A stretch of DNA of 64,000 nucleotides, taken from positions 5,728,001-5,792,000 of the forward strand of contig OZ245002.1 in the NCBI GenBank assembly GCA_965223415.1, written 5' to 3'. Shown here piece by piece: positions 158 to 19,894 of the stretch. Numbering within the stretch: position 1 is the first letter of the stretch; the number at the start of each line of letters is the position of its first letter. The stretch comes from Myxococcota bacterium. Its GTDB lineage: Bacteria > Myxococcota_A > UBA9160 > UBA6930. The notes under the pieces were generated by a model that did no database searches, was not told where the DNA came from, and saw only the letters and a list, made by a program, of their open reading frames with translations. Position numbers and translations under genes: made by a program.

Positions 158-1369
158 GTGTCCTGTTTCGGAAAAAAGTACGCAAAATAGTGCGAACTCC
201 CAACGTGCAGGGGGCATCTTACCGGCATCACGTTGGGGGGACGTATGGCGAATCGTGGCCGGCCCAAGACGCCGATTGTGCTGACGGATGCGGAGCGAGA
301 AGAGCTCCAGACGCACGCCAGAAGGCGGAAGAGCGCGCATCAGTTGGCCTACCGCTCGCGCATTGTATTGCTCGCAGAGCAGGGGCTGACGAATGGGGAA
401 ATCGCGGAACGCGTAGGCAAGCGACGAGAGACCGTCGGGATCTGGCGCAAGCGCTTCGTCGAAAAGCGGATCGCTGGGCTCTACGACGAGCCCAAGCCGG
501 GAGCGCCCCGGACGGTGACCGACGAGCAGGTCGATGAGGTCGTGCGCTTGACGCTAGAGGAAACGCCCACGGGAGCGACGCACTGGTCCGTTCGCCTGAT
601 GGCGAAGCGGGTAGGCCTCCCGACGACGACGGTTCATCGCATCTGGCGAGCATTCAGCCTCCAGCCGCACCGAGTCGAGCGCTTCCGGCTCTCCAACGAT
701 CCCCATTTTGTGGACAAGGTGGTGGATATCGTCGGCCTGTACATGTCTCCGCCGGCGAACGCGGTCGTCCTCTGCGTCGACGAGAAATCGCAGATCCAAG
801 CGCTGGAACGGAACCAGCCTGTCTTGCCGATGCAACCGGGCCGGGCGGAGCAGCGCACACACGGATACCTACGCCATGGCACGACGACACTCTTTGCCGC
901 ACTCAACATCGCAACGGGCGAAGTGATCGGATCCCTCCATCGCCGGCACCGCACGGAGGAGTTCCTGAAGTTCCTCAGGACGATCGACGACAACGTACCC
1001 GCCGAACTCGACATCCATCTCGTGCTCGACAACTACACCACGCACAAGACGAAGCGAACTCGGAGCTGGCTCGCGCGCCACCCTCGTTTCCACGTGCACT
1101 TCACCCCGACGTACAGCTCATGGCTGAATCAGGTCGAGCGGTTCTTTGCACTCATCACCGAGCGTTGCATCCGTCGCGGCGTGCATCGCAGCACGAGGGC
1201 GCTCGAGAACGACATCCGGAGCTTCCTGAAGACGACGAACGACGATCCGAGACCCTTCGTCTGGACCAAGACCGCGGATCAGATCCTCGCGAGTGTGCGG
1301 CGCTACTGTGGTCGCGTCCTCGACGTCCACTCCGATTCTAATCGAGTGGTTTCTTCTGGAACAGGACAC
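158..1369 (+). mobile_element. IS630-family insertion sequence
   Basis: Terminal inverted repeats: left (CTA)GTGTCCTGTTTCGGAAAAAA, right TTTCTTCTGGAACAGGACAC(TAG). Both ends sit in CTAG, with TA at 156-157 and 1370-1371 (the TA duplication typical of IS630). Encodes a DDE transposase; visibly lower GC than the flanks. Confidence 0.93.
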
Positions 1370-1372
1370 TAG
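245..1372 (+). CDS. IS630-family transposase (single intact ORF)
   Basis: N-terminal HTH; catalytic-type motifs [26 protein letters not shown]. The stop TAG includes the target-site TA. Confidence 0.95.
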
Positions 1373-5631: not shown

Positions 5632-6774
5632 ATGGCCGAGCTGGAGATGCTTTCGGGGGTGCGCGACGTGCCCCGCGAGGCGTGGAACGAGCTGGTGGGC
5701 GACGCGTCGCCCTTCCTCGAATGGGAATGGCTCGCCTCCCTCGAGGAGGCGGGCTGCGTCGGGCCGGAGAAGGGCTGGGCGCCCCGACCGCTCGTGGTGC
5801 GCGAGGAGGGCCGGCTGGTCGCCGCCTGTCCGGTCTACCTGAAGGGCCACAGCGAGGGCGAGTTCGTCTTCGACTGGAGCTGGGCCGACGCCGCCTACCG
5901 GGCGGGCATCGAGTACTACCCGAAGATGCTGGTCGGCGTGCCCTTCACGCCGGTGACCGGCGCGCGCTTCCTGGTCGCGCCCGGGGAGGATCAGGCGGAG
6001 CGCTCGGCGCTCCTCGCCCGGGCGCTCCTGGCGGTGTGCGAGGGCAACGATCTCTCCGGCGTCCACGTGAACTTCTGCCTCGAGGAGGAACGCCCGGCCC
6101 TGGAGAAGGCCGGCTACCTGCCGCGGCTCGGTTTCCAGTACCACTGGCACAACCGGGGCTTCGAGAGCTTCGACGACTACCTGGCCAGCCTGCGCAGCAA
6201 GCGCCGCAACCAGGTGCGGCGCGAGCGCCGGGAGCTCGAGCGCCAGGGCGTCACGATCGACTGTCTCGCCGGGGACGACATCTCCGACGACCTCTTCGAG
6301 CCCATGTATCGGATCTACCTCTCGACGATCCGCGACAACCCGTGGGGCCGCCAGTACCTGAATCGGGAGCTCTTCGACCTTCTCCGCGAACGCTTCCGCC
6401 ACCGGCTGTGCTTCATGGTGGCGCGGCAGGACGGGGAGATCCTGGCCGGCACCGTCAACGTCCAGAAGGGCGACGCGCTCTACGGCCGCTACTGGGGCTG
6501 CTTCCAGGAGCTGCGCCACCTCCACTTCAATGTCTGCTACTACGCGGGCATCGAGCACTGCATCGCCCACGGCCTGCGCCGCTTCGAGCCCGGCGCCGGC
6601 GGCCAGTACAAGCAGCTCCGCGGCTTCGACGCCCACCCCACCTGGAGCTTCCACCACCTCCGCGACCGGCGCCTGGCCGACGCCGTCGCCCGCTTCCTCG
6701 AGGCCGAGCGCCACGAAGCCGACGCCACCATCGACTGGTACGCCGACCACTCCGCCAACCGCCGCGACCGCTAA
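5632..6774 (+). CDS. DUF482 / FemAB-like GNAT-fold protein
   Basis: YLKGHSEGEFVFDWSWA, YYPK..PFTPVTG, LYGRYWG, LHFNVCYY, FEPGAGGQYK..RGF. Confidence 0.88.
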   Translation: MAELEMLSGVRDVPREAWNELVGDASPFLEWEWLASLEEAGCVGPEKGWAPRPLVVREEGRLVAACPVYLKGHSEGEFVFDWSWADAAYRAGIEYYPKMLVGVPFTPVTGARFLVAPGEDQAERSALLARALLAVCEGNDLSGVHVNFCLEEERPALEKAGYLPRLGFQYHWHNRGFESFDDYLASLRSKRRNQVRRERRELERQGVTIDCLAGDDISDDLFEPMYRIYLSTIRDNPWGRQYLNRELFDLLRERFRHRLCFMVARQDGEILAGTVNVQKGDALYGRYWGCFQELRHLHFNVCYYAGIEHCIAHGLRRFEPGAGGQYKQLRGFDAHPTWSFHHLRDRRLADAVARFLEAERHEADATIDWYADHSANRRDR

Positions 6775-6780
6775 CCCCAA

Positions 6781-6854
6781 AACGCAAGAGTGGGGACGTT
6801 CCTTGCAACTTGCGCATTTGCGCAAGTTGCAAGGAACGTCCCCACTCTTGCGTT
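6781..6854. repeat. 74-bp palindromic element (perfect 36-bp arms, TT centre)
   Basis: AACGCAAGAGTGGGGACGTTCCTTGCAACTTGCGCA-TT-TGCGCAAGTTGCAAGGAACGTCCCCACTCTTGCGTT, between convergent stops. Confidence 0.97.
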
Positions 6855-6855
6855 C

Positions 6856-7344
6856 TCAGGTACGGAGGGAGACGCTGCGGCCGTCGGGCTCGACCTCGGG
6901 GATCCAGACCTGGCTGCCGTACTCGGTGCCGAGCCAGATGGCGGTGTTGCAGCGGAAGAGGCGCTTCTTCGGCTCCTCCCCGTAGAGGGTGACCTCGATC
7001 TCGTCGAGCTCGTAGGCGTCGTCCCGGCGGGCGCTGCGACTGGATTGCTTGCGGAGGTAGACGCGATCGATGGCGTCGAAGCCCACGTAGAAGAGCGCGG
7101 GATCGTTCCAATCGGCGTGGGCCATCTTCGGCTGCTTGGAGCCGGCGAGGGCGGCCTCCTCCCATACCTTGCCCAGGTGGTACTTGATCCGGCTGCGACG
7201 CTCGAAGTCGTCGAACCAGGCCACGTCGAGGGGAAACTCGCGACCACCGGCGGTGCCGGACACCCCGATGTAGAGCGCGTCGTCGGTCCCCGCCTCCTTG
7301 GCGGTCCCGGTGTTGAGCTGAACAACCATGCCTCGGAGTGTCAC
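6856..7344 (-). CDS. Hypothetical protein, PLAT/LH2-like beta domain
   Basis: GTG start behind AGGAGG. TG..AGTDD..YIG.SG..G...DDFER pattern resembles PLAT/LH2. Confidence 0.6.
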   Translation of the reverse strand: MTLRGMVVQLNTGTAKEAGTDDALYIGVSGTAGGREFPLDVAWFDDFERRSRIKYHLGKVWEEAALAGSKQPKMAHADWNDPALFYVGFDAIDRVYLRKQSSRSARRDDAYELDEIEVTLYGEEPKKRLFRCNTAIWLGTEYGSQVWIPEVEPDGRSVSLRT

Positions 7345-7393
7345 CCGGAGCCTCCTCTCGAGTCGGGTAGTATACCCGGCCAAGGAGGCCCCC

Positions 7394-8374
7394 ATGGCCA
7401 AGATCATCGGCAACCTCGATCCCCAGGACGACTACCTCCACGAGCTCGGCCCCGAGCCGAACTTCAACGAGAGCGCCTACTACAACTTCTTCGACCAGAA
7501 GCAGTCCCTGGGCGGGTGGTTCCGCCTGGGCAACCGGGCGAACGAGGGCAACGCCGAGATGACGGTGTGCCTCTACCTTCCCGACGGCCGCGTGCTCTTC
7601 ACCTTTCGCCGGGCGCCCATCGACCACAATGACGCCTTCGACGCCGGCGGCCTCGCCTTCGAGGTGCTCGAGCCCACCGAGCGCCACCGCACCACCTTCG
7701 AGGGCACGGTGGTCGAGCTGGCGGAGCCACGGGACATGGCCGAACCCCGCCGCGCCTTCAAGGACAACCCGAAGAAGCGCATCTCCTTCGACCTGCTGCA
7801 CGAGGCCGTCGGCCCGCTCTACGGGAGCAAGGCCGCGAAGCAGGAGGAGGAGCGCGACGCGGAGCAATCCTTCGCCAAGGCCCACTTCGAGCAGCACATG
7901 CACGTGACCGGCGCCCTCGACATCGACGGCGAGAGCCTCCCGATCGACGGCTACGGCCTGCGCGACCACAGCTGGGGCCCGCGCTATTGGCAGGCGATCC
8001 ACTCCTACGAGTGGCTGACCCTGAACTTCGGCCCGGACCTGGGCGCCATGGTCTCGGTGATCCAGCGCGATGCCGAGGGCAAGGAGCGCAGCGCCGGGGG
8101 CGTGCTCGTGCGCGGCGACGAGATGGAGCGCCTCGTCGACGCCACCATCGAGGCCGAGTTCGAGGAGAACGGCCTCTACCACAAGCAGGTGACGGCGAAG
8201 GTCAAGACCGAGAGCGGCGAGGAGCTCACCATCGAAGGCCAGGTGGAGAGCTTCATCCCCCTGCGAAACCGCCGCGAAGGCAGGGTCACCCACATCGGCG
8301 AGGGCATGACCACCTGGACCCTCGGCGACCGCACCGGCCACGGCCTCTCCGAGTTCCTGCGGCAGGTGAAATAG
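7394..8374 (+). CDS. Conserved hypothetical, tocopherol-cyclase/AttH-like beta-barrel protein
   Basis: AAGGAGG RBS; NESAYYNFFD, HFEQH and GLRDHSWGPR motifs. Confidence 0.65.
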   Translation: MAKIIGNLDPQDDYLHELGPEPNFNESAYYNFFDQKQSLGGWFRLGNRANEGNAEMTVCLYLPDGRVLFTFRRAPIDHNDAFDAGGLAFEVLEPTERHRTTFEGTVVELAEPRDMAEPRRAFKDNPKKRISFDLLHEAVGPLYGSKAAKQEEERDAEQSFAKAHFEQHMHVTGALDIDGESLPIDGYGLRDHSWGPRYWQAIHSYEWLTLNFGPDLGAMVSVIQRDAEGKERSAGGVLVRGDEMERLVDATIEAEFEENGLYHKQVTAKVKTESGEELTIEGQVESFIPLRNRREGRVTHIGEGMTTWTLGDRTGHGLSEFLRQVK

Positions 8375-9408
8375 TGGCGCTCCGCATTCTCCTGGCGGCT
8401 GGTGCGGCGGCCGCCCTGGCCGCCAGCGCGCAGGCCCAGAGCGTGAAGCTCAAGGTGCAGTCCGCCTGGAGCCGGAACATGCCCGTGCTGGGCGAGACGA
8501 TCCAGAACTTCGCCTCGCGCATGGAGGCGATGGGTGGTCACGGTATCCGCCTGCGCGTCTACGATGCGGACAAGCTCGTGCCCACCCTCCAGATCATGGA
8601 CGCGGTCTCCGCTGGGAAGGTCGATGCCGGCTTCGCCTGGCCCGGCTACTGGATGGGGAAGCTCCCGGCCGCGGCGGTGTTCGGCGCGGTCCCCTTCGGC
8701 CCGGAGGCGCCGGAGTACCTGGCCTGGCTCCACGAGGGCGGCGGCCTCCAGCTCTGGGAGGAGATCTACGCGGAGCTCGGCGTCGTTCCCATTCCCTGCG
8801 GCGTAATCCCACCGGAGGCGTCGGGCTGGTTCCGCAAGCCGATCGAGAGCGAGGCGGATCTCCAGGGCCTCAAGGTACGCTACGCCGGCCTGGGCGGGAA
8901 GACCCTGGAGAAGCTCGGGGCGTCGATCACCATGCTGGCCGCCGGAGACATCTTCCTCTCCCTGGAGCGCGGCGTGCTCGACGCCACCGAGTACTCCATG
9001 CCCGCCGTCGACAGGCCCCTGGGCTTCTACAAGGTGGCCAAGCACTACTACTTCCCGGGCTGGCACCAGCCTTCGTCGATCATGGAGCTGGTGGTGAACG
9101 CCGAGAGCTGGGCCGAGCTCTCGGCGGCCCAGCAGGCGGCAGTGCGCACGGCCTGCGACGCCTCGACCACCTGGAGCCTCACCCGGGGCCTGGCGATCCA
9201 GGGCGAGGCCCTGGCCTACTTCGAGGAGCAGGGCGTGACGGTCCACACCTGGCCGCCGGAGCTCATGGCCCGCTTCCGCTCCGCCGCCGCGGAGGTGATG
9301 GCGGAGGCCAGCGCAGCGGACCCGGACTTCAAGCGGGCGTGGGAATCCCTGCAAGCCTTCCGGGCCGAGCACCGGCCCTGGTCGTCGATCGCGACGCCCG
9401 AGGACTAG
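8374..9408 (+). CDS. dctP: TRAP transporter substrate-binding protein (DctP, TakP-like)
   Basis: GTG overlaps the previous TAG; signal peptide; GWFRKPI..DLQGLKVR, LERGVLDATE, YYFPGWHQP. Confidence 0.9.
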   Translation: MALRILLAAGAAAALAASAQAQSVKLKVQSAWSRNMPVLGETIQNFASRMEAMGGHGIRLRVYDADKLVPTLQIMDAVSAGKVDAGFAWPGYWMGKLPAAAVFGAVPFGPEAPEYLAWLHEGGGLQLWEEIYAELGVVPIPCGVIPPEASGWFRKPIESEADLQGLKVRYAGLGGKTLEKLGASITMLAAGDIFLSLERGVLDATEYSMPAVDRPLGFYKVAKHYYFPGWHQPSSIMELVVNAESWAELSAAQQAAVRTACDASTTWSLTRGLAIQGEALAYFEEQGVTVHTWPPELMARFRSAAAEVMAEASAADPDFKRAWESLQAFRAEHRPWSSIATPED

Positions 9409-9409
9409 C

Positions 9410-9931
9410 ATGAGGCGGACGCTGCGGCGGTTCGCCGACGGGGTAGCGGCCCTCTCGGAACGCGTGGGCACGGCTGCGGCCTGGCTCTACCCGGCGCTCG
9501 TGGGCGTGATGGTCGTGAACGTGGCCCTGCGCTACGGCCTCGGCCGCGGCTTCATCGAGCTGGAGGAGCTCCAGTGGCACCTCTACGCCGGCGCGTTCCT
9601 GCTCGGCTTCGCCTACACCTACGTCGCGGACGAGCACGTGCGCGTGGACGTCGTGGCCTCGCAACTGCCGCCCCGGGCCCGCGCGTGGATCGAGCTCCTG
9701 GGCTGCCTGCTGCTCCTCTTCCCTTTCACGGCGATCGTGTCGGCCTCGGCCTTCGACTTCTTCCTCCAGTCCTGGCAGCTCGGCGAGCGCTCGCCCATGC
9801 CGAGCGGGCTCCCCCACCGCTGGATCATCAAGGCTGTGCTCTTCGCGGCGCTCTCGCTGCTGTGCCTCCAGTCCCTGGGCACGGCGGCGAGTCGGGCGCT
9901 CTTCCTCTGGCCCGAGCGGGAGGAGCGCTAG
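9410..9931 (+). CDS. dctQ: TRAP transporter small permease (DctQ)
   Basis: 4 TM segments; EELQWHLY, HVRVD motif. Confidence 0.9.
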   Translation: MRRTLRRFADGVAALSERVGTAAAWLYPALVGVMVVNVALRYGLGRGFIELEELQWHLYAGAFLLGFAYTYVADEHVRVDVVASQLPPRARAWIELLGCLLLLFPFTAIVSASAFDFFLQSWQLGERSPMPSGLPHRWIIKAVLFAALSLLCLQSLGTAASRALFLWPEREER

Positions 9932-9937
9932 GCGGCC

Positions 9938-11284
9938 GTGGAAGGTGATCTCAACGTCCTCTTCGTCGTGCTCATGTTCGCGAGCTTCGTGGCGCTGCTG
10001 CTCACGGGCTACCCGGTCGCGTGGGTGCTGGCGGGCGTCGGGGTCGTCTTTGCCGCGACCGGCGAACTCCTGAACGCCCGCGGTGTCGACGTGGACGCGG
10101 ACCTGGCCACCCTCGGGCTCGTGGTGGACCGCATCTACGGAACGATGTCGAACTACGGGCTGGTTCCGCTTCCCCTCTTCGTGTTCATGGGCCACATGCT
10201 CGATCGCAGCGGCGTGGCGGCGGAGCTGCTGCGCGCCCTCCAGGCGTTGATGGGGCGCCTGGCCGGCGGCCTCGCCCTCGCGGTGACGCTCCTGGGCGTG
10301 GTGTTGGCGGCCTCGACGGGCATCATCGGCGCGTCGGTGGCACTCCTCGGCACCCTCGCGCTGCCGGCCATGCTCGAGGACGGCTACCAGCCGGAGCTGG
10401 CGGTCGGCACCGTCGCGGCGTCGGGCTGCCTCGGGATCCTGATCCCGCCGAGCATCATGCTCGTGCTGATGAGCGACCCCATGCAGCTCTCGGTGGGCGA
10501 TCTCTTCCTCGGCGCGGTCTTCCCGGGCCTGCTGCTCGCCGGCCTCTACCTGGGCTACCTGGGCCTGCGCTGCTGGTGGCAGCCCGAGCTGGCGCCACCC
10601 CACCGCGGCAGCGCCGGCAGCGCCGCCCTGGGCGATGTGCTGCGCGCCCTCCTCCCGCCCCTGGGCCTGATCGCCCTGGTGCTGGGCTCGATCTTCTTCG
10701 GCGTGGTCTCGCCGTCGGAGGCCGCCGGGGTGGGCGCCCTGGGTGCCACCCTTCTCTCTCTGGCGCGCCGTCGTCTCGACCGCCGGGTCGTGCGGGAGGT
10801 ATCCCGCGCCACCGCCCGCACCACGTCGTTCATCTTCGCCATCTTCCTCGGCGCGACCTGCTTCTCCGTCGTGCTCCGGGAGCTGGGCGGCGACCAGGTG
10901 ATCGAGGGGGCCATCACCGCCCTGCCCTTCGGCCCCACCGGCATCGTCGTCTCGTTGATGGCCCTCGTCTTCGTGCTGGGCTTCTTCCTGGACTGGATCG
11001 AGATCACCTTGATCGTCCTGCCCCTCGTCGAGCCGATCACCGGCGTGCTCGGCATCGACAAGCTCTGGTTCACCATGCTGGTCGCGGTCTGCCTGCAGAC
11101 CTCCTTCCTGACGCCACCCGTGGGCTTCGCCCTCTTCTACCTGAAGGGCGTGGCGCCGCCGGAGATCGAGCTGCCCCATCTGTACCGCGGCATCGTGCCC
11201 TTCGTCCTGCTCCAGCTGGTGGGGCTGGCCGCCCTCTTCCTCTGGCCGGAGCTGGTCACCTGGCTCCCGGCAGCGGCCTTCTGA
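9938..11284 (+). CDS. dctM: TRAP transporter large permease (DctM)
   Basis: PLFVFMG, LGILIPPSIML, TSFLTPPVGFALFYLKG. Confidence 0.93.
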   Translation: MEGDLNVLFVVLMFASFVALLLTGYPVAWVLAGVGVVFAATGELLNARGVDVDADLATLGLVVDRIYGTMSNYGLVPLPLFVFMGHMLDRSGVAAELLRALQALMGRLAGGLALAVTLLGVVLAASTGIIGASVALLGTLALPAMLEDGYQPELAVGTVAASGCLGILIPPSIMLVLMSDPMQLSVGDLFLGAVFPGLLLAGLYLGYLGLRCWWQPELAPPHRGSAGSAALGDVLRALLPPLGLIALVLGSIFFGVVSPSEAAGVGALGATLLSLARRRLDRRVVREVSRATARTTSFIFAIFLGATCFSVVLRELGGDQVIEGAITALPFGPTGIVVSLMALVFVLGFFLDWIEITLIVLPLVEPITGVLGIDKLWFTMLVAVCLQTSFLTPPVGFALFYLKGVAPPEIELPHLYRGIVPFVLLQLVGLAALFLWPELVTWLPAAAF

Positions 11285-11324
11285 TGCTGCGCACCTGCCT
11301 CCCGATGGCGGCCTTCTGATGCTG
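11257..11324 (+). repeat. Imperfect 35-bp-period tandem duplication of the dctM 3' end
   Basis: CACCTGGCTCCCGGCAGCGGCCTTCTGATGCTG vs CACCTGCCTCCCGATGGCGGCCTTCTGATGCTG. Confidence 0.85.
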
Positions 11325-12359
11325 GACGCGCACCCCAGCGCGGCCCGCGTCCACGGCGCCCTCCTGGCCCGCGGCCGCGAAGCCCTCCCCACCCGCCACG
11401 GCCGTTTCGTGCTCCACCGCTTCCTCCACCTGGGGCGCGGCGAGACCCTCCTCGCGGCGACGATCGGGGAGCTCGCGGGAGACGAGCCGCTCCTGGCTCG
11501 CGTGCACTCCGCCTGCGTCACGAGCGAGGTGCTCGGCGCCTGCGACTGCGACTGCGCCGCCCAGCTGCAGGCCGCTCTCGGCGAGATCGCCGCCGAAGGG
11601 CGGGGCGTTCTCTTCTACCCCGGTCAGGAGGGACGCGGCGCCGGCCTGGTGGCGAAGGCACGGGATCGCATGCTGGTGCAGGCGAGCCGGGAGCGCATCA
11701 CCACCTTCGAGGCCTACGAGCGCCTGGGCTTGCCCCACGACCCGCGCGGCTACGACGAGATCGCCGACATGCGCGCGCTGCTGGGATGCAGCGCGCCGCT
11801 CCTCCTGCTGACGAACAACCCGGACAAGGTGTCGGGCCTCGACCGGGCCAAGGTGCCCCTGGCGGGCGTTCGGCCCCTGGTGACGGAGCCCTCGCCCTTC
11901 AACCAGCACTACCTGGCCGCGAAGGGACGCGCGGGCCACGAGCTCTCCGCCGCAGACGCCCGCCGGGCGCCGCTTCCCCGCCCGGTGGAAGCGCGGCCGC
12001 CGGCGCACCACGCCCGGGACCCGGACTGGATCCGTGCCGCGGCGTACCTGATCCCCGTGGGCCCCCGGACCGGCGAGCCGCCCTGCTGGATGGAGGCGCA
12101 GGTCTGGCTCGACCTCCGGCGCGGACGGCCACGCCTGCTGCTGGTGGGCCTGGACGGCCCGGGCCCCGTCGGCGGCTGGCTCGGCCAGCGCTGGGCCGAC
12201 CGCTTCGTCGAGGCCCCCGGCCCGCGCGCGGTCCTCGCGGACTGGCTGGGCCGCCTCGCCCGGGACGGCGTCGGCTGCATCGGGCTCCTGGATCCCGGCG
12301 AGTCGGCGCCGGACGGGCCGAGCGAGCGACTGTGGCGGCATCCGGTGACCGGGCCGTGA
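11319..12359 (+). CDS. GTP cyclohydrolase II (RibA)-like protein, atypical active site, C-terminal extension
   Basis: RVHSAC..CDCDC zinc ligands, QEGRG, DPR, LTNNPDK, NQHYL..K..GH. KARDR in place of the canonical KIRAY. Confidence 0.85.
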   Translation: MLDAHPSAARVHGALLARGREALPTRHGRFVLHRFLHLGRGETLLAATIGELAGDEPLLARVHSACVTSEVLGACDCDCAAQLQAALGEIAAEGRGVLFYPGQEGRGAGLVAKARDRMLVQASRERITTFEAYERLGLPHDPRGYDEIADMRALLGCSAPLLLLTNNPDKVSGLDRAKVPLAGVRPLVTEPSPFNQHYLAAKGRAGHELSAADARRAPLPRPVEARPPAHHARDPDWIRAAAYLIPVGPRTGEPPCWMEAQVWLDLRRGRPRLLLVGLDGPGPVGGWLGQRWADRFVEAPGPRAVLADWLGRLARDGVGCIGLLDPGESAPDGPSERLWRHPVTGP

Positions 12360-14185
12360 GCACGACCGCCGAGCTGCGCGCCCGCCTGGAGCAGGTCCCC
12401 GCGCGGCTGGTCGAGGCCGCGCACGACGGGACGACCCTGCCCCGTAGCCTGCGGACGTGCCGCAGGCTGCTCGTGACCGGTGCCGGCAGCTCCGCCGGGC
12501 ACGCGCGCTTCCTCGTCGACGCCCTCGCCGAGGCCCGGCCCGCTCGCTGGCGCCCGCTCACCGCCTTCGCCGCCGGCCCGCCGCCGGACGCGGAGCGCGA
12601 CGGGCTGATCGTCTTCAGCCAGGGCCTCTCGCCGAACGCGTGTCTCGCGCTCCACGGAGCCGAGCGCTTCCGGGCCGTCGTTCTCGTCACCGCCGCCCGG
12701 AACGCCGACGCGGCCACCCGCCGGCGACTCGACGGCCTTCGCGAGCGCGGGGTTTGCGTCGTCGACACGGGGGCCGACGAGGAGCGCGGCAGCCTGGTGC
12801 GGTTGGCGGGACCCGTCCTCGCCTACGCCGCCGCCCTTCGCATCGCCGGAGCCCTGGAGGGCTCCCCGGTCTTCTCGGACGCAGAGGTCGCCGCGGCCCT
12901 CGAGCGAGGCTTCCGGCGTGGCATCGACGAAGTGGGCGGGCTCCCCGACGCCGCCTTCACCGGCGACTTCCTCCTGCTCGGAAGCGGCCTCGACCCGGGC
13001 GCCCGCGACAACCTGCGGCTCAAGCTCGCGGAAGGCCTGCTCGCGACGGTGCCACCGGTGTGCGACCTCCTCGAGTTTCCCCACGGCCCCTTCCAGCAGC
13101 TCTACGGGCGGGACGCCACCCTGCTCGCCCTCGCCGATCCGGGCGACCCGGCGGGCGCGGCGCTCCTGCCCCGGGTCGCCGGGATGCTCACGCCGGCGCA
13201 GCGGCTGATCGAGGTGCCCGCCGCGCTTCCGGGGCGGCTCTCGGTCTTCGAGCACGAGATCTGGCTCGGCTGCTTCACCCTGGAGGGCATGGAGCGGCGG
13301 GGCATCGACGCGGCCCGCTGGCCGGGCCGCGGCCTTGACGAGCCGCTCTACGAGCTGGCGGCCCCGGTGGCGGCGCCAGCGTCGGCGGCCGCGCCGCAGC
13401 CCGACCCGGCGCGTCGTCGCCTCGAGCACTTGACCTGGCCCGAGCTGGAGCGTCTGCGCGAGGCGGGCCCCCTCACGGCCGTGATCGCGCTGGGCTCGAC
13501 GGAGCAGCACGGCCCGCACCTCCCGTTCGGAACCGACACCTGGATCGCCGACGCCCTGGCCGAGCGCTTCTGCGCGCGGGTGCCCGAGGCCGTCGCCCTC
13601 CCGGCCGTGCCCTTCGGCTGCGCACGAGAGCACATGGCCTTCCCCGGAACCCTCGACCTGGGCGAGGATCACCTGACCGGGCTGCTCGTCGACCTGCTCC
13701 GCTCGCTGGCGCACCACGGCTTCGCCCGGGCCTACGTCTTCTCGGCGCACGGCGGGAACGTGGAGCTCCTGCGCCGCAGCCAGGAAGGCCTCGCCGCGAG
13801 CGCCCCTTCCCTGGCGCTCCACGTCTCCACCGATCACCGGCGCCTGAACGAGGCGCTCCTTGCGGTCGCCGCCGACCAGGGCGTCGCCGCGTCGGCCGCC
13901 GGGCTCCACGCGGGCGAGCTCGAGGCTTCGATCATCGCCGGCCTCGCGCCCGGGGCCCTGCGGCGGGCGGAGGCGCGGCCGGGCTACCGGGAGCCGGTCG
14001 ACGACGCCCGCGCCCTCTTCTACCCGAGCCTCCGCGACCATGCGCCGGACGGGACGGTCGGCGATCCCACCGCCGCCTCAGCGGCCCGCGCCGAGCGCTA
14101 CCTCGAGACGTGGGCCGAGCTCCTGGTCGCGGACTACCGGGCCCGGAAGAACGCCCAGTGCACGAAGGGCACGAAGAAGGCGTAG
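12356..14185 (+). CDS. SIS (sugar isomerase)-creatininase/amidohydrolase fusion
   Basis: GTGA overlap with the upstream gene. SIS-type TGAGSS, FSQGLS, KLAEG and EFPHGP motifs, then creatininase motifs EQHGPHLPFGTD, AHGGN and HAGELE. Confidence 0.85.
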   Translation: MSTTAELRARLEQVPARLVEAAHDGTTLPRSLRTCRRLLVTGAGSSAGHARFLVDALAEARPARWRPLTAFAAGPPPDAERDGLIVFSQGLSPNACLALHGAERFRAVVLVTAARNADAATRRRLDGLRERGVCVVDTGADEERGSLVRLAGPVLAYAAALRIAGALEGSPVFSDAEVAAALERGFRRGIDEVGGLPDAAFTGDFLLLGSGLDPGARDNLRLKLAEGLLATVPPVCDLLEFPHGPFQQLYGRDATLLALADPGDPAGAALLPRVAGMLTPAQRLIEVPAALPGRLSVFEHEIWLGCFTLEGMERRGIDAARWPGRGLDEPLYELAAPVAAPASAAAPQPDPARRRLEHLTWPELERLREAGPLTAVIALGSTEQHGPHLPFGTDTWIADALAERFCARVPEAVALPAVPFGCAREHMAFPGTLDLGEDHLTGLLVDLLRSLAHHGFARAYVFSAHGGNVELLRRSQEGLAASAPSLALHVSTDHRRLNEALLAVAADQGVAASAAGLHAGELEASIIAGLAPGALRRAEARPGYREPVDDARALFYPSLRDHAPDGTVGDPTAASAARAERYLETWAELLVADYRARKNAQCTKGTKKA

Positions 14186-14841
14186 TAGAGCTGGTTCGGG
14201 ACGAGCCGGATCGCCCAGCCCTCGTCCAGCCCGGCCAGGATCATCACGTCCGCCGAGGCCCACAGGCCGTAGTAGGCGACGACGTAGCCGAGCACCGCGC
14301 GCAGGAAGGCCGCGCGGGCCCCGCCCTCGCCGAGACGTCCGGGCACGACGCGGCGGGCGAGCACGAGGGAGACGACGACGAAGGCGCTCTCGTGGACGAG
14401 CCACAGCACCTGGTTCGGCACCTCGCCGAGCGCACGGGCAAGGGCGAGCTCGACGACGAAGGCGAATACCGGCACCAACGCCGTGAGGCCCGCCGCGCGC
14501 GCCGCCGAGCGCCCGGGGCCGCCGCCGGGCGCCAGGAGGTGCAGGACGAGCCAATACACGCGGAAGTCGCCCAGCAGCACGAACGAGAGGCCGAGGGCGG
14601 TCGAGACCGTCTCGCTCCCCGCGGCCGTCGCAATCGGCCCGGTGGCCACCGGGTCGAGCATCGTCTCGGCGGCGAAGAGCAGGAGCCAGCCGGACACGAA
14701 GCCCGCCTGGGCCGGCGCGGCCCCGCCGCGCGGCGGTTCCGTGGCCGCGCGCATCGCCAGGTAGGCGAAGGGCACCACGAGCAGCGCCCAGGGCCATTGC
14801 CAGGACGCGTAGTAGAAGGTCTGCCAGCTAGACGCGTCCAA
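14134..14841 (-). CDS. Hypothetical multi-pass membrane protein
   Basis: TTG start behind GGAGG; about 6-7 hydrophobic segments; overlaps the stop of the carF-like gene. Confidence 0.7.
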   Translation of the reverse strand: MDASSWQTFYYASWQWPWALLVVPFAYLAMRAATEPPRGGAAPAQAGFVSGWLLLFAAETMLDPVATGPIATAAGSETVSTALGLSFVLLGDFRVYWLVLHLLAPGGGPGRSAARAAGLTALVPVFAFVVELALARALGEVPNQVLWLVHESAFVVVSLVLARRVVPGRLGEGGARAAFLRAVLGYVVAYYGLWASADVMILAGLDEGWAIRLVPNQLYYAFFVPFVHWAFFRAR

Positions 14842-15499
14842 CGCCCGCCTCCCGGTGCTCGTGCCGCCGACGCGGCTCGAGGGCGCGGAACAGGCCGAGC
14901 CGGTCGACGAGCGGGTTCATCCAGCCGGTCACGACACAGAAATGCGTCGCGTGGGCGCCGCGATGGTGGCGGGCGTGGTGCCGCGGCGGAAGCAGCAGGT
15001 GGTAGCGCTGGAGCCAGGCGAGGGGCGCCGGCACCCGCGGCAGGTGCGCCCAGCGATGGATGGGGTTGCTGAAGAGCGCCGCCAGGGCCAAGGTGCCCAG
15101 CGCCCCGAGGCCGCCGCTGGCCAGCCCGGAGGTGCCGAAGGCGGGTGCCAGCCAGGCGCCGAGGGCGACCACCGGCAGCAGGGCCAGGGCGTTGTTGCCC
15201 GTCACCTCCACGAAGCCGTGGCGGGTGATGCCCAGCGGGTCCACGTGGTGCTCCCGAAACGGCTGGATCACGGCGCGCCCGATCCACGGGGTGTCGGCGT
15301 CGAAACAGCGGTCCCCCAGCCAGTGGACGAAGCCTGTCGCGAGGTCCGCCGCCGCGACGCCGGCCAACGCGCCGACGAGGATCCAGGGGGCGTGGGCTGC
15401 GCCAGGGAGCGGACCCAGGCGCAGCGCGGCCGCCGACGAGAGCAGCGCGAAGGCCAGGAGCGAGGCACCGTCCAGGACGCGAAGCCAGGGGGGTCGCAC
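14828..15499 (-). CDS. carF: CarF/TMEM189(PEDS1)-family lipid desaturase (plasmanylethanolamine desaturase-like)
   Basis: His motifs D..TGFVHWLGD, FREHH.DP..IT.H, IHRWAH, HHARHH, FCVVTGWMN. Confidence 0.85.
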   Translation of the reverse strand: MRPPWLRVLDGASLLAFALLSSAAALRLGPLPGAAHAPWILVGALAGVAAADLATGFVHWLGDRCFDADTPWIGRAVIQPFREHHVDPLGITRHGFVEVTGNNALALLPVVALGAWLAPAFGTSGLASGGLGALGTLALAALFSNPIHRWAHLPRVPAPLAWLQRYHLLLPPRHHARHHRGAHATHFCVVTGWMNPLVDRLGLFRALEPRRRHEHREAGVGRV

Positions 15500-15541
15500 G
15501 ACTCGCAGGGTAGACCGGCCCCGGACACGGCGCTCACGCCG

Positions 15542-15571
15542 AAACGCCCCCGTCCGCCAGAACGGGGGCGT
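15542..15571 (-). terminator. Intrinsic terminator-like hairpin
   Basis: Minus strand ACGCCCCCGT-TCTGGCGG-ACGGGGGCGT-TTC, downstream of the lipoprotein gene; short U tract. Confidence 0.6.
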
Positions 15572-15587
15572 CGGTGAAGAGCCTCGC

Positions 15588-15676
15588 GGCAGCTAGAAGC
15601 GGACGCTCCGGTGCCCCGCTAGGCAGCTAGAAGCGGACGCTCCGGTGCCCTGCTAGGCAGCTAGAAGCCGACGCTC
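15588..15676. repeat. 34-bp tandem repeat, about 2.6 copies
   Basis: GGCAGCTAGAAGCGGACGCTCCGGTGCCC(C/T)GCTA twice, plus partial GGCAGCTAGAAGCCGACGCTC overlapping the gene stop. Confidence 0.9.
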
Positions 15677-18649: not shown

Positions 18650-19894
18650 CTACTTGCCGGACCCGCTGGGAACGTCCCGGAAGGGGATGCCCTTGTCGGC
18701 CCGGTGCTCGCCAGGCAGCCCCAGCACGCGCTCGGCGATCACGTTCTTCAGGATCTCGTCCGTGCCACCGGCGATGCGGATGCCGGGGGAGCCCAGGTAG
18801 CTCTCCTGCCAGATCGCCTCCATCGGGACGGCCGACGGGTCCATGACCCCGCCCATGGCGCCTTGCAGCTCCATGGCGAAGGCCGCCAGCTCCTGACTGA
18901 ACGGGGCACCGACCGCCTTGCCGATCGAGCCTTCGGGTCCCGGCGTGGCGCCGCGGGAGAGCGCGGAGAGCGTCCGGTAGCCGGTGTACTTGAGGCCGGT
19001 CGAGGTGATGAAGGCGTCCGCCAGGCGCTGGCGCACCGAGCTGTCCTCGAGGGCCGGGCGTCCGTTCTTCTGGCACGAAGCCGCCAGACGGAAGAGATCC
19101 TTCGTCCGCCCCGCGCCGCCGCCGGCGCCGATCGAGACGCGCTCGTTCATCAGCGTGGTGATGGCCACCTGCCAGCCCTGGCCCACCGCCCCGAGCTGGT
19201 TCTCCGCCGGCACCCGCACGTCCGTGAAGAACACCTCGTTGAAGCCGGCGCCGCCGTTGATCTGCTTGATCGGCCGGCACTCGACGCCCGGGGCGTGCAT
19301 GTCGACGATGAAGTAGGTGAGGCCGTCGTGCTTCGGCACGTCCGGGTCCGTGCGGGTGACGATCATGCCCCAGTCGCAGAAGTGGGCGCCTGTGCTCCAG
19401 ATCTTCTGGCCGTTGATCACCCACTCGTCGCCGTCGCGCACCGCGGTGGTGCGCAGGCCCGCGAGGTCCGAGCCCGCCGCCGGCTCGCTGAAGAGCTGGC
19501 ACCAGACGACCTGTCCGCGGGCCATCTCCTTCAGGTACTTGTCCTTCTGCTCGTCCGTGCCATGGGCCATCAAGGTGGGTCCGAGCATCCCGTGGCCGAT
19601 GCCGTAGATGGCGGCCGGCGTGCGGAACTTGGCCTCCTCCTGGTTGAAGACCACGTTCTCGAGCCGGCCCAGGCCCTGGCCGCCGTACTCCTTCGGCCAG
19701 GTCAGGACCGCCCAGCCGCTGTCGTATTTCGTGGCCTGCCATTCCTTGGCCTTCTTGATCGCGTCCGCGTCCTCCCGCTCGCCCAGCAGACCGGGAGAGG
19801 TCTGGTTCGGGTCGAGGGGCTCGAGGTGCTGCTCGAGGAAGGCGCGGGCCTTGGCGCGGAACTCGGCTTCCTGGGGGGTATCGTCGAAATCCAT
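18650..19894 (-). CDS. Acyl-CoA dehydrogenase (catalytic subunit)
   Basis: WCQLFSEPAAGSDLA, NGQKIWST, FNEVFF, IAGGTDEI. Confidence 0.93.
   Translation of the reverse strand: MDFDDTPQEAEFRAKARAFLEQHLEPLDPNQTSPGLLGEREDADAIKKAKEWQATKYDSGWAVLTWPKEYGGQGLGRLENVVFNQEEAKFRTPAAIYGIGHGMLGPTLMAHGTDEQKDKYLKEMARGQVVWCQLFSEPAAGSDLAGLRTTAVRDGDEWVINGQKIWSTGAHFCDWGMIVTRTDPDVPKHDGLTYFIVDMHAPGVECRPIKQINGGAGFNEVFFTDVRVPAENQLGAVGQGWQVAITTLMNERVSIGAGGGAGRTKDLFRLAASCQKNGRPALEDSSVRQRLADAFITSTGLKYTGYRTLSALSRGATPGPEGSIGKAVGAPFSQELAAFAMELQGAMGGVMDPSAVPMEAIWQESYLGSPGIRIAGGTDEILKNVIAERVLGLPGEHRADKGIPFRDVPSGSGK

Follow-up and report, generated by a model that had tools for sequence, protein, structure and literature searches.

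Adams et al. (2014, PMC4161248) describe a route in Chlamydia in which RibA and the Amadori-type isomerase TrpF together give dihydroneopterin monophosphate, bypassing FolE and FolQ. The product of guanosine triphosphate (GTP) cyclohydrolase II is carried to a pterin by an Amadori rearrangement, with no GTP cyclohydrolase I involved. Ring opening and deformylation can also be divided between two proteins, the second of them from the creatininase family, as in the archaeal ArfA and ArfB; in rhizobia, the bacterial creatininase-family protein BrbF deformylates the formylaminopyrimidine nucleotide AFRPP, and its partner cyclohydrolase is described as still being sought (Yurgel et al. 2022, PMC9478397). 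Here we analyse a 64-kb stretch (the window; genome positions 5728001–5792000) of a Myxococcota genome that consists of a single 5.83 Mb contig. It carries a gene for a RibA-like protein (11319–12359, + strand; positions are those of the window unless stated otherwise) followed by a gene for a fusion of a double-SIS domain with a creatininase-type hydrolase (12356–14185, +), both placed directly behind the operon of a TRAP transporter (7394–11284, +). The interpretation that we favour, with confidence that is about evenly balanced, is that these are two neighbouring units, a TRAP operon and an enzyme pair that makes a pterin of the dihydroneopterin-phosphate type for a module composed of a seven-transmembrane (7-TM) protein and a PruR-like cytochrome.

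The logic proposed for the pair is thus that of the Chlamydia route. However, the isomerase candidate is a GlmS-like double-SIS domain rather than a TIM-barrel TrpF, the cyclohydrolase lacks the catalytic tyrosine and is accompanied by a separate formamidase domain, and the genes are dedicated and clustered in a genome that still contains FolE. With ArfA/ArfB and BrbF the pair would share the split between ring opening and deformylation, although its first enzyme has the cyclohydrolase II fold and not the ArfA fold, its hydrolase is fused to a double-SIS domain and falls below every NCBIfam equivalog cut-off, and its genes go with those of a periplasmic cytochrome and a membrane protein rather than with riboflavin genes. 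No paper on this gene combination was found in text searches, which left the subscription literature largely outside. Searches of the same kind found no paper linking creatininase with a SIS domain, only irrelevant papers for creatininase with pterin, and only the BrbF paper for GTP cyclohydrolase II with creatininase.

The catalytic domain of the RibA-like protein (11319–11960, +) has the GTP cyclohydrolase II fold (Pfam PF00925, E = 4.3e-33; 114.6 bits, cut-off 23.3, residues 21–179) and fails the ribA equivalog cut-offs (TIGR00505, 119.6 versus 205.85 bits; NF001591, 138.6 versus 148 bits). Its alignment to E. coli RibA (PDB 2bz0) spans residues 21–209, with the three cysteines and the NNP region retained. 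The sequence HSAC...CDC, present in 120/120 homologues, lies opposite HSEC...CDC of 2bz0, whose Cys54, Cys65 and Cys67 bind zinc. Tyr105 of the E. coli enzyme, the catalytic tyrosine with a role in formate release, stands opposite Arg117, which is followed by Met118 ('ARDRM'). The residues DRM are found in all 16 locus orthologues and in 120/120 database homologues, and the consensus at the tyrosine site is x-[R/L]-D-R-M followed by a two-residue insertion (11 + 5 locus orthologues and 120/120 homologues). The GTP cyclohydrolase II paralogues of Streptomyces coelicolor studied by Spoonamore and Bandarian in 2008 reportedly stop at the formylamino product. These proteins reportedly have the cyclohydrolase II fold with the catalytic tyrosine replaced and a methionine at or next to its position, as in the RibA-like protein; unlike them, the RibA-like family has the invariant Asp-Arg-Met, the two-residue insertion and a degenerate half-domain at the C-terminus. 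This C-terminal extension (11961–12359, +) has no zinc cysteines, and its ~130 residues gave no Pfam match at E≤10. Profile–profile comparison aligned it with the catalytic domain over 78 columns (probability 82%, E = 1.1e-5), so that the extension probably repeats, in degenerate form, the first half of the cyclohydrolase II fold.

The fusion protein is composed of 609 residues. Its N-terminal half (12356–13390, +) was modelled with AF2 from a 12-sequence alignment (predicted local distance difference test score, pLDDT, 89; predicted template-modelling score, pTM, 0.90), and a Foldseek search of the PDB with the model yielded 209 hits at E≤0.001, headed by GlmS isomerase domains, NagB-II, the Pyrococcus deaminase 2cb0 and 1j5x (E ~1e-12, template-modelling (TM) scores 0.6–0.73, ~350 columns). 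The 'SIS' label of the initial annotation is therefore borne out by the fold, although it is invisible to Pfam. K223-x-x-E226 and H243-G244 lie opposite LKMKE...HG of 2cb0 in a profile alignment. Across 21 fused and free SIS forms S88-Q89, E226, H243, G244 and P245 are invariant and K223 is nearly so. The pattern is that of the catalytic Lys-x-x-Glu and His-Gly of GlmS (Lys485, Glu488 and His504) and of a phosphate-loop serine. The SIS half thus has in common with the GlmS isomerase domain, NagB-II and FrlB a two-SIS architecture, the phosphate-loop Ser-Gln and the Lys-x-x-Glu...His-Gly pattern of enzymes that carry out keto–aldo isomerisation of amino-sugar phosphates. It differs from them in that identity is only 12–18%, in being fused to a creatininase-type hydrolase, and in its presumed substrate, a pentose phosphate linked to a pyrimidine.

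The C-terminal half (13424–14128, +) is a creatininase-family metal hydrolase (Pfam PF02633, E = 2.3e-57; 194.6 bits against a cut-off of 31.3, residues 357–591) that stays below the cut-offs of the equivalogs MftE (138.4 versus 172 bits) and creatininase (73.7 versus 235 bits); no mycofactocin genes were seen in the annotated loci. The motifs EQHG, HGGN and HAGExE are present in 120/120 homologues. In an alignment to 3no4 and 1q3k, E383, H385, D394 and H465, invariant in 20/20 sequences, match the metal ligands Glu34, His36, Asp45 and His120 of creatininase. The fifth ligand, Glu122, is opposite a glycine in the fusion (HGGN), as in 3no4. By its context, the constant association with a cyclohydrolase that lacks the tyrosine, this half is a candidate formamidase of the ArfB/BrbF type. 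The extreme C-terminal tail of the fusion, K-x-x-x-x-T-K-G-T-x-K, is conserved and lies antisense to the conserved last helix (VPFV...) of the membrane protein encoded on the facing strand. Since near-identical antisense letters occur in a same-genus genome that has no fusion gene (window 14134–14185; locus L104, 4548–4600), conservation of the tail may be a by-product of the 52-nucleotide (nt) overlap between the two genes.

At least 120 full-length relatives of the fusion (42–53% identity) were found and, where the source was named, these came from Myxococcota, Binatia, Thermodesulfobacteriota and Dormibacteraeota; relatives of Archangium or Stigmatella are among the carriers. With the fusion as query, 80 loci were retrieved, of which 13 encode the whole fusion and 67 only the creatininase domain. 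The RibA-like gene is directly upstream of the fusion gene in all 12 loci of this first set that include upstream DNA, the thirteenth contig starting inside the fusion gene, and in 5/5 further loci, so that the pair is adjacent in 17/17. The DUF7064 gene and the TRAP genes accompany the pair in only two of the 17, L009 and L013, which are syntenic kin sharing the wider gene order of the window; in both, dctM and the pair are kept apart by a gene for an enoyl-CoA hydratase, joined in L013 by a CMD gene. The six-gene set proposed in the initial annotation is consequently not co-conserved, while the RibA-like/fusion pair within it is. Two other genes accompany the pair. In 8 of the 11 assessable loci of the first set, and in 13/16 overall, the gene for the PruR-like cytochrome immediately precedes the RibA-like gene; that for the 7-TM protein adjoins the fusion gene in 12/13 loci of the first set. 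All five further loci have the order cytochrome, RibA-like, fusion and then the facing membrane gene. In two metagenome-assembled loci, L020 (8016–8770, 8817–9617 and 10001–11830) and L011 (11033–11780), the matches to the cytochrome, the RibA-like protein and the fusion are split across frames, reflecting either assembly errors or decay.

PruR of Agrobacterium belongs to the PruA/PruR/DcpA system and is a secreted protein with a truncated SUOX fold that lacks the molybdenum-binding cysteine; it holds a pterin stacked between a tyrosine and a tryptophan, with an asparagine as hydrogen-bonding residue (N102, Y104 and W160; PMC11194511, PMC13259868). The route by which reduced pterins enter the periplasm is stated to be unknown (PMC11194511; 2026 review PMC13259868), and neither text makes any mention of a cytochrome. 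The partner protein found here is of ~280 residues, with a cytochrome c domain at its C-terminus and a hydrophobic N-terminus that has, by eye, an Ala-rich stretch at its end, as expected of a secretion signal. Its model (pLDDT 86) matches PruR structures over their whole length (7kom, 7kp2, the neopterin complex 7rkb, 7kou and 7kos; Foldseek E = 2e-5 to 2e-4, TM score 0.69–0.74 of the target), and sulfite oxidases were matched as well. In an alignment of 21 sequences CxxCH and a methionine are conserved, the N-domain has no invariant cysteine, and D99-G-Y101 and W149 are invariant. Hence the N-domain resembles PruR, a small secreted SUOX-type fold without the molybdenum cysteine. In contrast to PruR it is fused to a c-type cytochrome, is often encoded in one operon with the candidate pterin-making enzymes, and has as its partner, in place of a sensor of the DcpA type, a 7-TM protein that belongs to no known family. 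No operon with such a sensor was seen, the neighbours of the cytochrome gene being those for the 7-TM protein, the SIS protein and the RibA-like protein. The family comprises at least 957 clusters (E≤0.001), labelled just 'cytochrome c'.

The orthologue in the genome of the window (51% identical; genome positions 4304749–4305594, outside the window) lies 1.4 Mb from the enzyme pair and behind a chemotaxis cluster. By eye, it ends a same-strand run of CheA-, CheW- and CheY-like genes (genome positions 4296001–4305594; L083). Within the window's own family, the PruR-like cytochrome and membrane genes are on different contigs. A gene for a CobW/COG0523-type GTPase is found just upstream of the cytochrome gene in a single locus (L008, 7086–7970); brbF is reported also to adjoin a cobW gene in rhizobia (PMC9478397).

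The distribution of these genes was surveyed in 301 genomes of the phylum, with the same sample for three queries. The N-domain of the cytochrome protein was found in 54 genomes and the membrane protein in 55, with both in 50. The whole fusion is present in eight genomes and a free-standing SIS homologue alone in 15. All 23 of these SIS-bearing genomes have the PruR-like cytochrome (8/8 with the fusion and 15/15 with SIS only), and 22 have the membrane protein. In 12/12 SIS-only loci the membrane, cytochrome and SIS genes are side by side, with no match to the RibA-like protein or the creatininase within ~9 kb. Of the 30 loci examined, 29 have the 7-TM gene beside a gene for the fusion or for the SIS protein. 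The system is therefore nested: a core of membrane protein and cytochrome, a SIS protein in about half of the genomes with this core, and the RibA-like protein and creatininase together in a third of those.

We propose that the RibA-like protein, a GTP cyclohydrolase II without the tyrosine, would open the imidazole ring of GTP, release pyrophosphate and stop at the 5-formylamino pyrimidine nucleotide (AFRPP/FAPy). The creatininase-family domain would then deformylate this nucleotide to the 5'-phosphate of 2,5-diamino-6-ribosylamino-pyrimidinone. The strict pairing of such a cyclohydrolase with a creatininase-type hydrolase fits this two-step ring opening and deformylation, and the fusion of the hydrolase to an isomerase fold with intact catalytic residues argues that the next step takes place on the phosphoribosylamine. 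There, the GlmS/FrlB-like double-SIS domain could perform an Amadori rearrangement, after which ring closure onto the 5-amino group would give a pterin of the 7,8-dihydroneopterin-3'-phosphate type. The three steps would in sum be a 'split GTP cyclohydrolase I', whose pterin product, as such or as a derivative, may serve the periplasmic PruR-like cytochrome, with the 7-TM protein as exporter or membrane partner; in SIS-only genomes an ordinary RibA could supply the SIS substrate. The purine-derived chemistry suggested in the initial annotation thus survives for the last two genes, which ring opening, deformylation and isomerisation fit, and not for the other four. Of the two outcomes that it offered, a pterin-like metabolite gains some support from the pterin-binding PruR fold of the partner protein, and salvage is not supported.

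If this proposal is correct, the pair would be a third bacterial start of pterin synthesis from GTP, spread over several phyla, in which a cyclohydrolase of the riboflavin type, a formamidase and an isomerase of sugar amines are combined and connected to an exported cytochrome that binds pterins. The proposal would then bear on the identity of the enzyme from which bacterial creatininase-type formamidases receive the formylamino intermediate, on how and why pterins reach the periplasm, and on the role of the large family labelled 'cytochrome c'. What is new in the genomic data is the rearranged layout behind the TRAP operon, the same-genus genome without the pair (described below), and the nested distribution.

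Several points weigh against the proposal. The pterin end product is deduced from three family resemblances. For the SIS half, residues 1–355 of the fusion match no SIS family in Pfam at E≤10, and the sequence profile finds 2cb0 in the PDB only weakly (E = 0.0011). Similarly, the sequence profile of the PruR-like cytochrome retrieves only cytochrome c chains from the PDB, so its likeness to PruR is one of fold only. That loss of the tyrosine halts the reaction at the formyl stage is carried over from what is reported of the Streptomyces paralogues, and the aligned residue here is an arginine with the methionine one position later. The genome does not appear to need a new pterin route, because it has FolE and the full riboflavin pathway: a genome search placed ribH and ribD at genome positions 128915–130035, ribE at 5596194–5596736, and a canonical ribBA at 5027905–5028405 (244 bits as ribA). 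The initial annotation, which had remarked that the window contains no ribD, ribE or ribH and had suggested a check for a canonical ribA elsewhere, was right on the former, and the latter is present. A replacement of FolE by the pair in this genome was considered and rejected, FolE being present and FolE2 absent from the genome in our search. Furthermore, 28 of the 50 genomes that have both the membrane protein and the cytochrome gave no SIS or fusion match with the queries used, from which it follows that the biosynthetic genes are dispensable for the membrane/cytochrome pair. Finally, the counted genes themselves served to select the loci, and many of the genomes are kin, which makes the fractions given above measures of association and not counts of independent events.

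The relation of the pair to the TRAP operon was examined from the junctions between the genes. The window has a G+C content of ~71%, which crowds the raw lists of open reading frames (ORFs), and a custom GC3-based, codon-position gene caller was used. It returned six genes on the + strand at 7394–8374, 8374–9408, 9410–9931, 9938–11284, 11319–12359 and 12356–14185, the same limits as those of the six tightly packed genes of the initial annotation; in order, Pfam assigns them DUF7065+DUF7064, DctP, DctQ, DctM, GTP_cyclohydro2 and Creatininase. The junctions also read as previously claimed: TAGTG (a 1-nt overlap), 1 bp, 6 bp, TGATG, TGATG and GTGA. A repeat search showed that the 3' end of dctM is tandemly duplicated in two 35-nt copies that are 83% alike (11251–11285 and 11286–11320, +). 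As a result of this duplication there is a putative mini-ORF of 11 codons between dctM and the RibA-like gene (11284–11319, +) that shares one nt with the stop of dctM and one with the start of the RibA-like gene, giving the two TGATG junctions. There are therefore seven coupled reading frames rather than six. The duplicated stop/start joint is best read as the scar of a rearrangement that joined the transporter unit to the enzyme pair.

A genome of the same genus (G068, locus L104) has, in order, genes for the PLAT protein, DUF7064, dctP, dctQ and dctM, and then the facing membrane gene, the lipid desaturase, an unnamed ORF and CNNM, all 76–90% identical to those of the window (gene 1, 90%). 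Neither a RibA-like nor a fusion gene intervenes before the membrane gene; the 35-nt repeat occurs as a single copy, and only a long palindrome follows dctM. Since G068 has the operon intact without the pair, the TRAP/DUF7064 operon stands alone, and this comparison of sequences indicates that the pair is either an insertion in the lineage of the window or a deletion in G068. The coupling to dctM through the duplicated junction is a recent rearrangement that probably does no more than lend the pair the expression of the transporter operon. The palindrome (L104, 4549–4660), nearly perfect and ~100 nt in length, occupies the place of the pair between the convergent dctM and membrane genes, and may act as a terminator in both directions or as a site of recombination.

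The first gene of the TRAP unit (7394–8374, +), with AAGGAGG 7 nt before its ATG, encodes a DUF7065+DUF7064 protein (Pfam PF23213, E = 6.4e-22; PF23212, E = 4.9e-29) that is AttH-like and Rv3169-like. It scores 64 bits against NCBIfam Rv3169_fam, short of the cut-off of 150, and matches the 'putative AttH' structure 2ich weakly (E = 0.019). Its Atlas neighbours are DUF7064/5 and AttH clusters. The earlier label 'cyclase-like' was only loosely right, as tocopherol-cyclase families appear solely among the distant neighbours and no cyclase family is matched; the gene is the first of the TRAP unit and lies outside the GTP module. The second gene (8374–9408, +) encodes a solute-binding protein of the DctP type (Pfam DctP, E = 2.3e-42) from the keto-/hydroxy-acid (TakP-like) subgroup, its best solved relatives being the 'ketoacid-binding protein' 7ug8 (E = 3.1e-68), 2hzk (E = 7e-63) and the lactate-binding 2zzv (E = 1.2e-31). 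It is accompanied by DctQ, the small permease (9410–9931, +; Pfam DctQ, E = 3.1e-21), and DctM, the large permease (9938–11284, +; Pfam DctM, E = 7.2e-70; TIGR00786, 292 bits against a cut-off of 268). The DctP of the window is thus alike over its full length to those of TakP-type transporters for 2-oxo and 2-hydroxy acids (E = 3e-68 to 1e-31) and, as in those systems, comes with the usual DctQ and DctM; the system differs in its uncharacterised DUF7065/DUF7064 partner, and its presumed ligand class is that of its sequence relatives. We assign positions 7394–11284 to an independent uptake operon for organic acids, comprising a keto-/hydroxy-acid-type TRAP transporter and an AttH-like protein. 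The TRAP operon here should receive no purine-related role in annotation, and the locus illustrates that tight translational coupling can join unrelated units.

Four other explanations of the locus were weighed. In the one put forward by the initial annotation, the six genes form a single pathway in which the transporter imports a damaged purine or a precursor that the DUF7064 'cyclase', the RibA variant and the fusion then process. The genes are probably co-transcribed and co-translated here, because all junctions overlap or lie within 6 bp, and no promoter- or terminator-like site between them rises above the shuffled background (0 sigma-70-like and 2 terminator-like sites in 6700–15600, not above shuffles, a search that is uninformative for a high-GC organism). 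Against this, the set co-occurs in the window's own lineage only, with a same-genus genome that has the TRAP operon and no pair, binders of keto acids and lactate are the closest kin of the binding protein, and the joint is a duplication scar. A single pathway is extremely improbable, being largely refuted, as far as sequence comparison goes, by the distribution of the genes, and the salvage of an imported damaged purine is likewise not supported, given the ligand class and a TRAP operon that exists alone. The pair might instead be a second entry to riboflavin, with a GTP cyclohydrolase III-type enzyme, a formamidase of the ArfB/BrbF type and a SIS domain that is regulatory or unrelated. BrbF sets a precedent for creatininase-family formamidases in bacterial riboflavin synthesis with the partner cyclohydrolase still sought (PMC9478397), and the RibA-like gene and the creatininase domain always co-occur. 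This reading is nonetheless quite unlikely in a genome that already has ribBA, ribD, ribH and ribE, for a pair that is never beside rib genes in the annotated loci, and with a SIS domain that keeps its catalytic pattern and is also found free-standing beside the same cytochrome and membrane genes. Nor was any Rfam family, and hence any flavin mononucleotide (FMN) riboswitch, detected at gathering score in the whole window or in nine related loci totalling 134,535 bases.

The other two explanations concern what the SIS domain does. It could be a deglycase that, after ring opening and deformylation, splits off the phosphoribosyl (or ribulosyl) group, in the manner of FrlB acting on fructoselysine 6-phosphate. 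This would yield a free redox-active triaminopyrimidinone resembling divicine, or the pathway would serve in GTP disposal or damage control. The fold family contains both deaminases and deglycases, NagB-II and 2cb0 being among the top matches, the chemistry is the reverse of the Amadori step with the same residues, a stacking pocket of the PruR type might accept a pyrimidine, and plants are reported to make free pyrimidines from GTP via cyclohydrolase II (vicine preprint). We still consider a deglycase unlikely, because the proteins nearest in structure to the partner protein have bicyclic pterins as ligands, no sink for the released sugar phosphate is apparent in the loci, and the genes that go with the pair are those of a periplasmic cytochrome and a membrane protein rather than catabolic ones. 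The last explanation, which is very unlikely, gives the SIS domain an ordinary amino-sugar phosphate as substrate and has it make, jointly with the CarF-like desaturase and the 7-TM protein, a product for the envelope or for lipid head groups, with some other role left to the cyclohydrolase and the creatininase. Such a function would account for the CarF-type desaturase gene that adjoins the membrane gene in 15/39 loci and for the fatty-acid synthase or hydroxylase genes close by in several loci, but it leaves unexplained the fusion of a SIS domain to a formamidase-type hydrolase, the strict pairing with a GTP cyclohydrolase II that lacks the tyrosine, and the pterin-binding fold of the cytochrome partner.

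The facing gene (14134–14841, −) encodes a protein of ~240 residues with seven hydrophobic segments and no Pfam match, and its 3' end is the one that overlaps that of the fusion gene; an Atlas search returned only 'hypothetical protein' clusters. The next gene (14828–15499, −) encodes a CarF/TMEM189-type lipid desaturase (Pfam PF10520, E = 3.1e-43); apart from the association of the two genes noted above, the flanks show no conservation. In L006, L020 and L089–L091, genes for FabH/FabF-like proteins or fatty-acid hydroxylases are found close by. The desaturase and fatty-acid neighbours give hints of a lipid-related role for the 7-TM partner. An extension of the favoured interpretation, to which we attach only a small probability, is that the product is a reduced pterin which the 7-TM protein moves across the membrane and which acts as redox cofactor for a periplasmic pterin-plus-heme protein, the whole serving a membrane lipid reaction with the CarF-type (plasmalogen-type) desaturase. 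If this is correct, bacteria would have a counterpart to the way in which animal ether-lipid enzymes depend on tetrahydrobiopterin. In a single locus (L011, 12467–13369), the membrane gene adjoins a gene for a formamidopyrimidine DNA glycosylase of the Fpg/Nei type.

The remaining genes around the operon are unrelated to the six. By Pfam, the upstream flank encodes ClpA/ClpS, a FemAB-like protein and a PLAT protein, and the downstream flank the lipid desaturase, CNNM and an acyl-CoA dehydrogenase. A DDE_3 transposase with helix-turn-helix domains, from an IS630-like element, is encoded at 233–1372 (+), ~6 kb upstream of the operon. Farther downstream, two abutting small ORFs (110 and 96 amino acids; 18984–19607, +) have no Pfam match and an odd distribution of G+C over codon positions (first 0.48, second 0.65, third 0.96).

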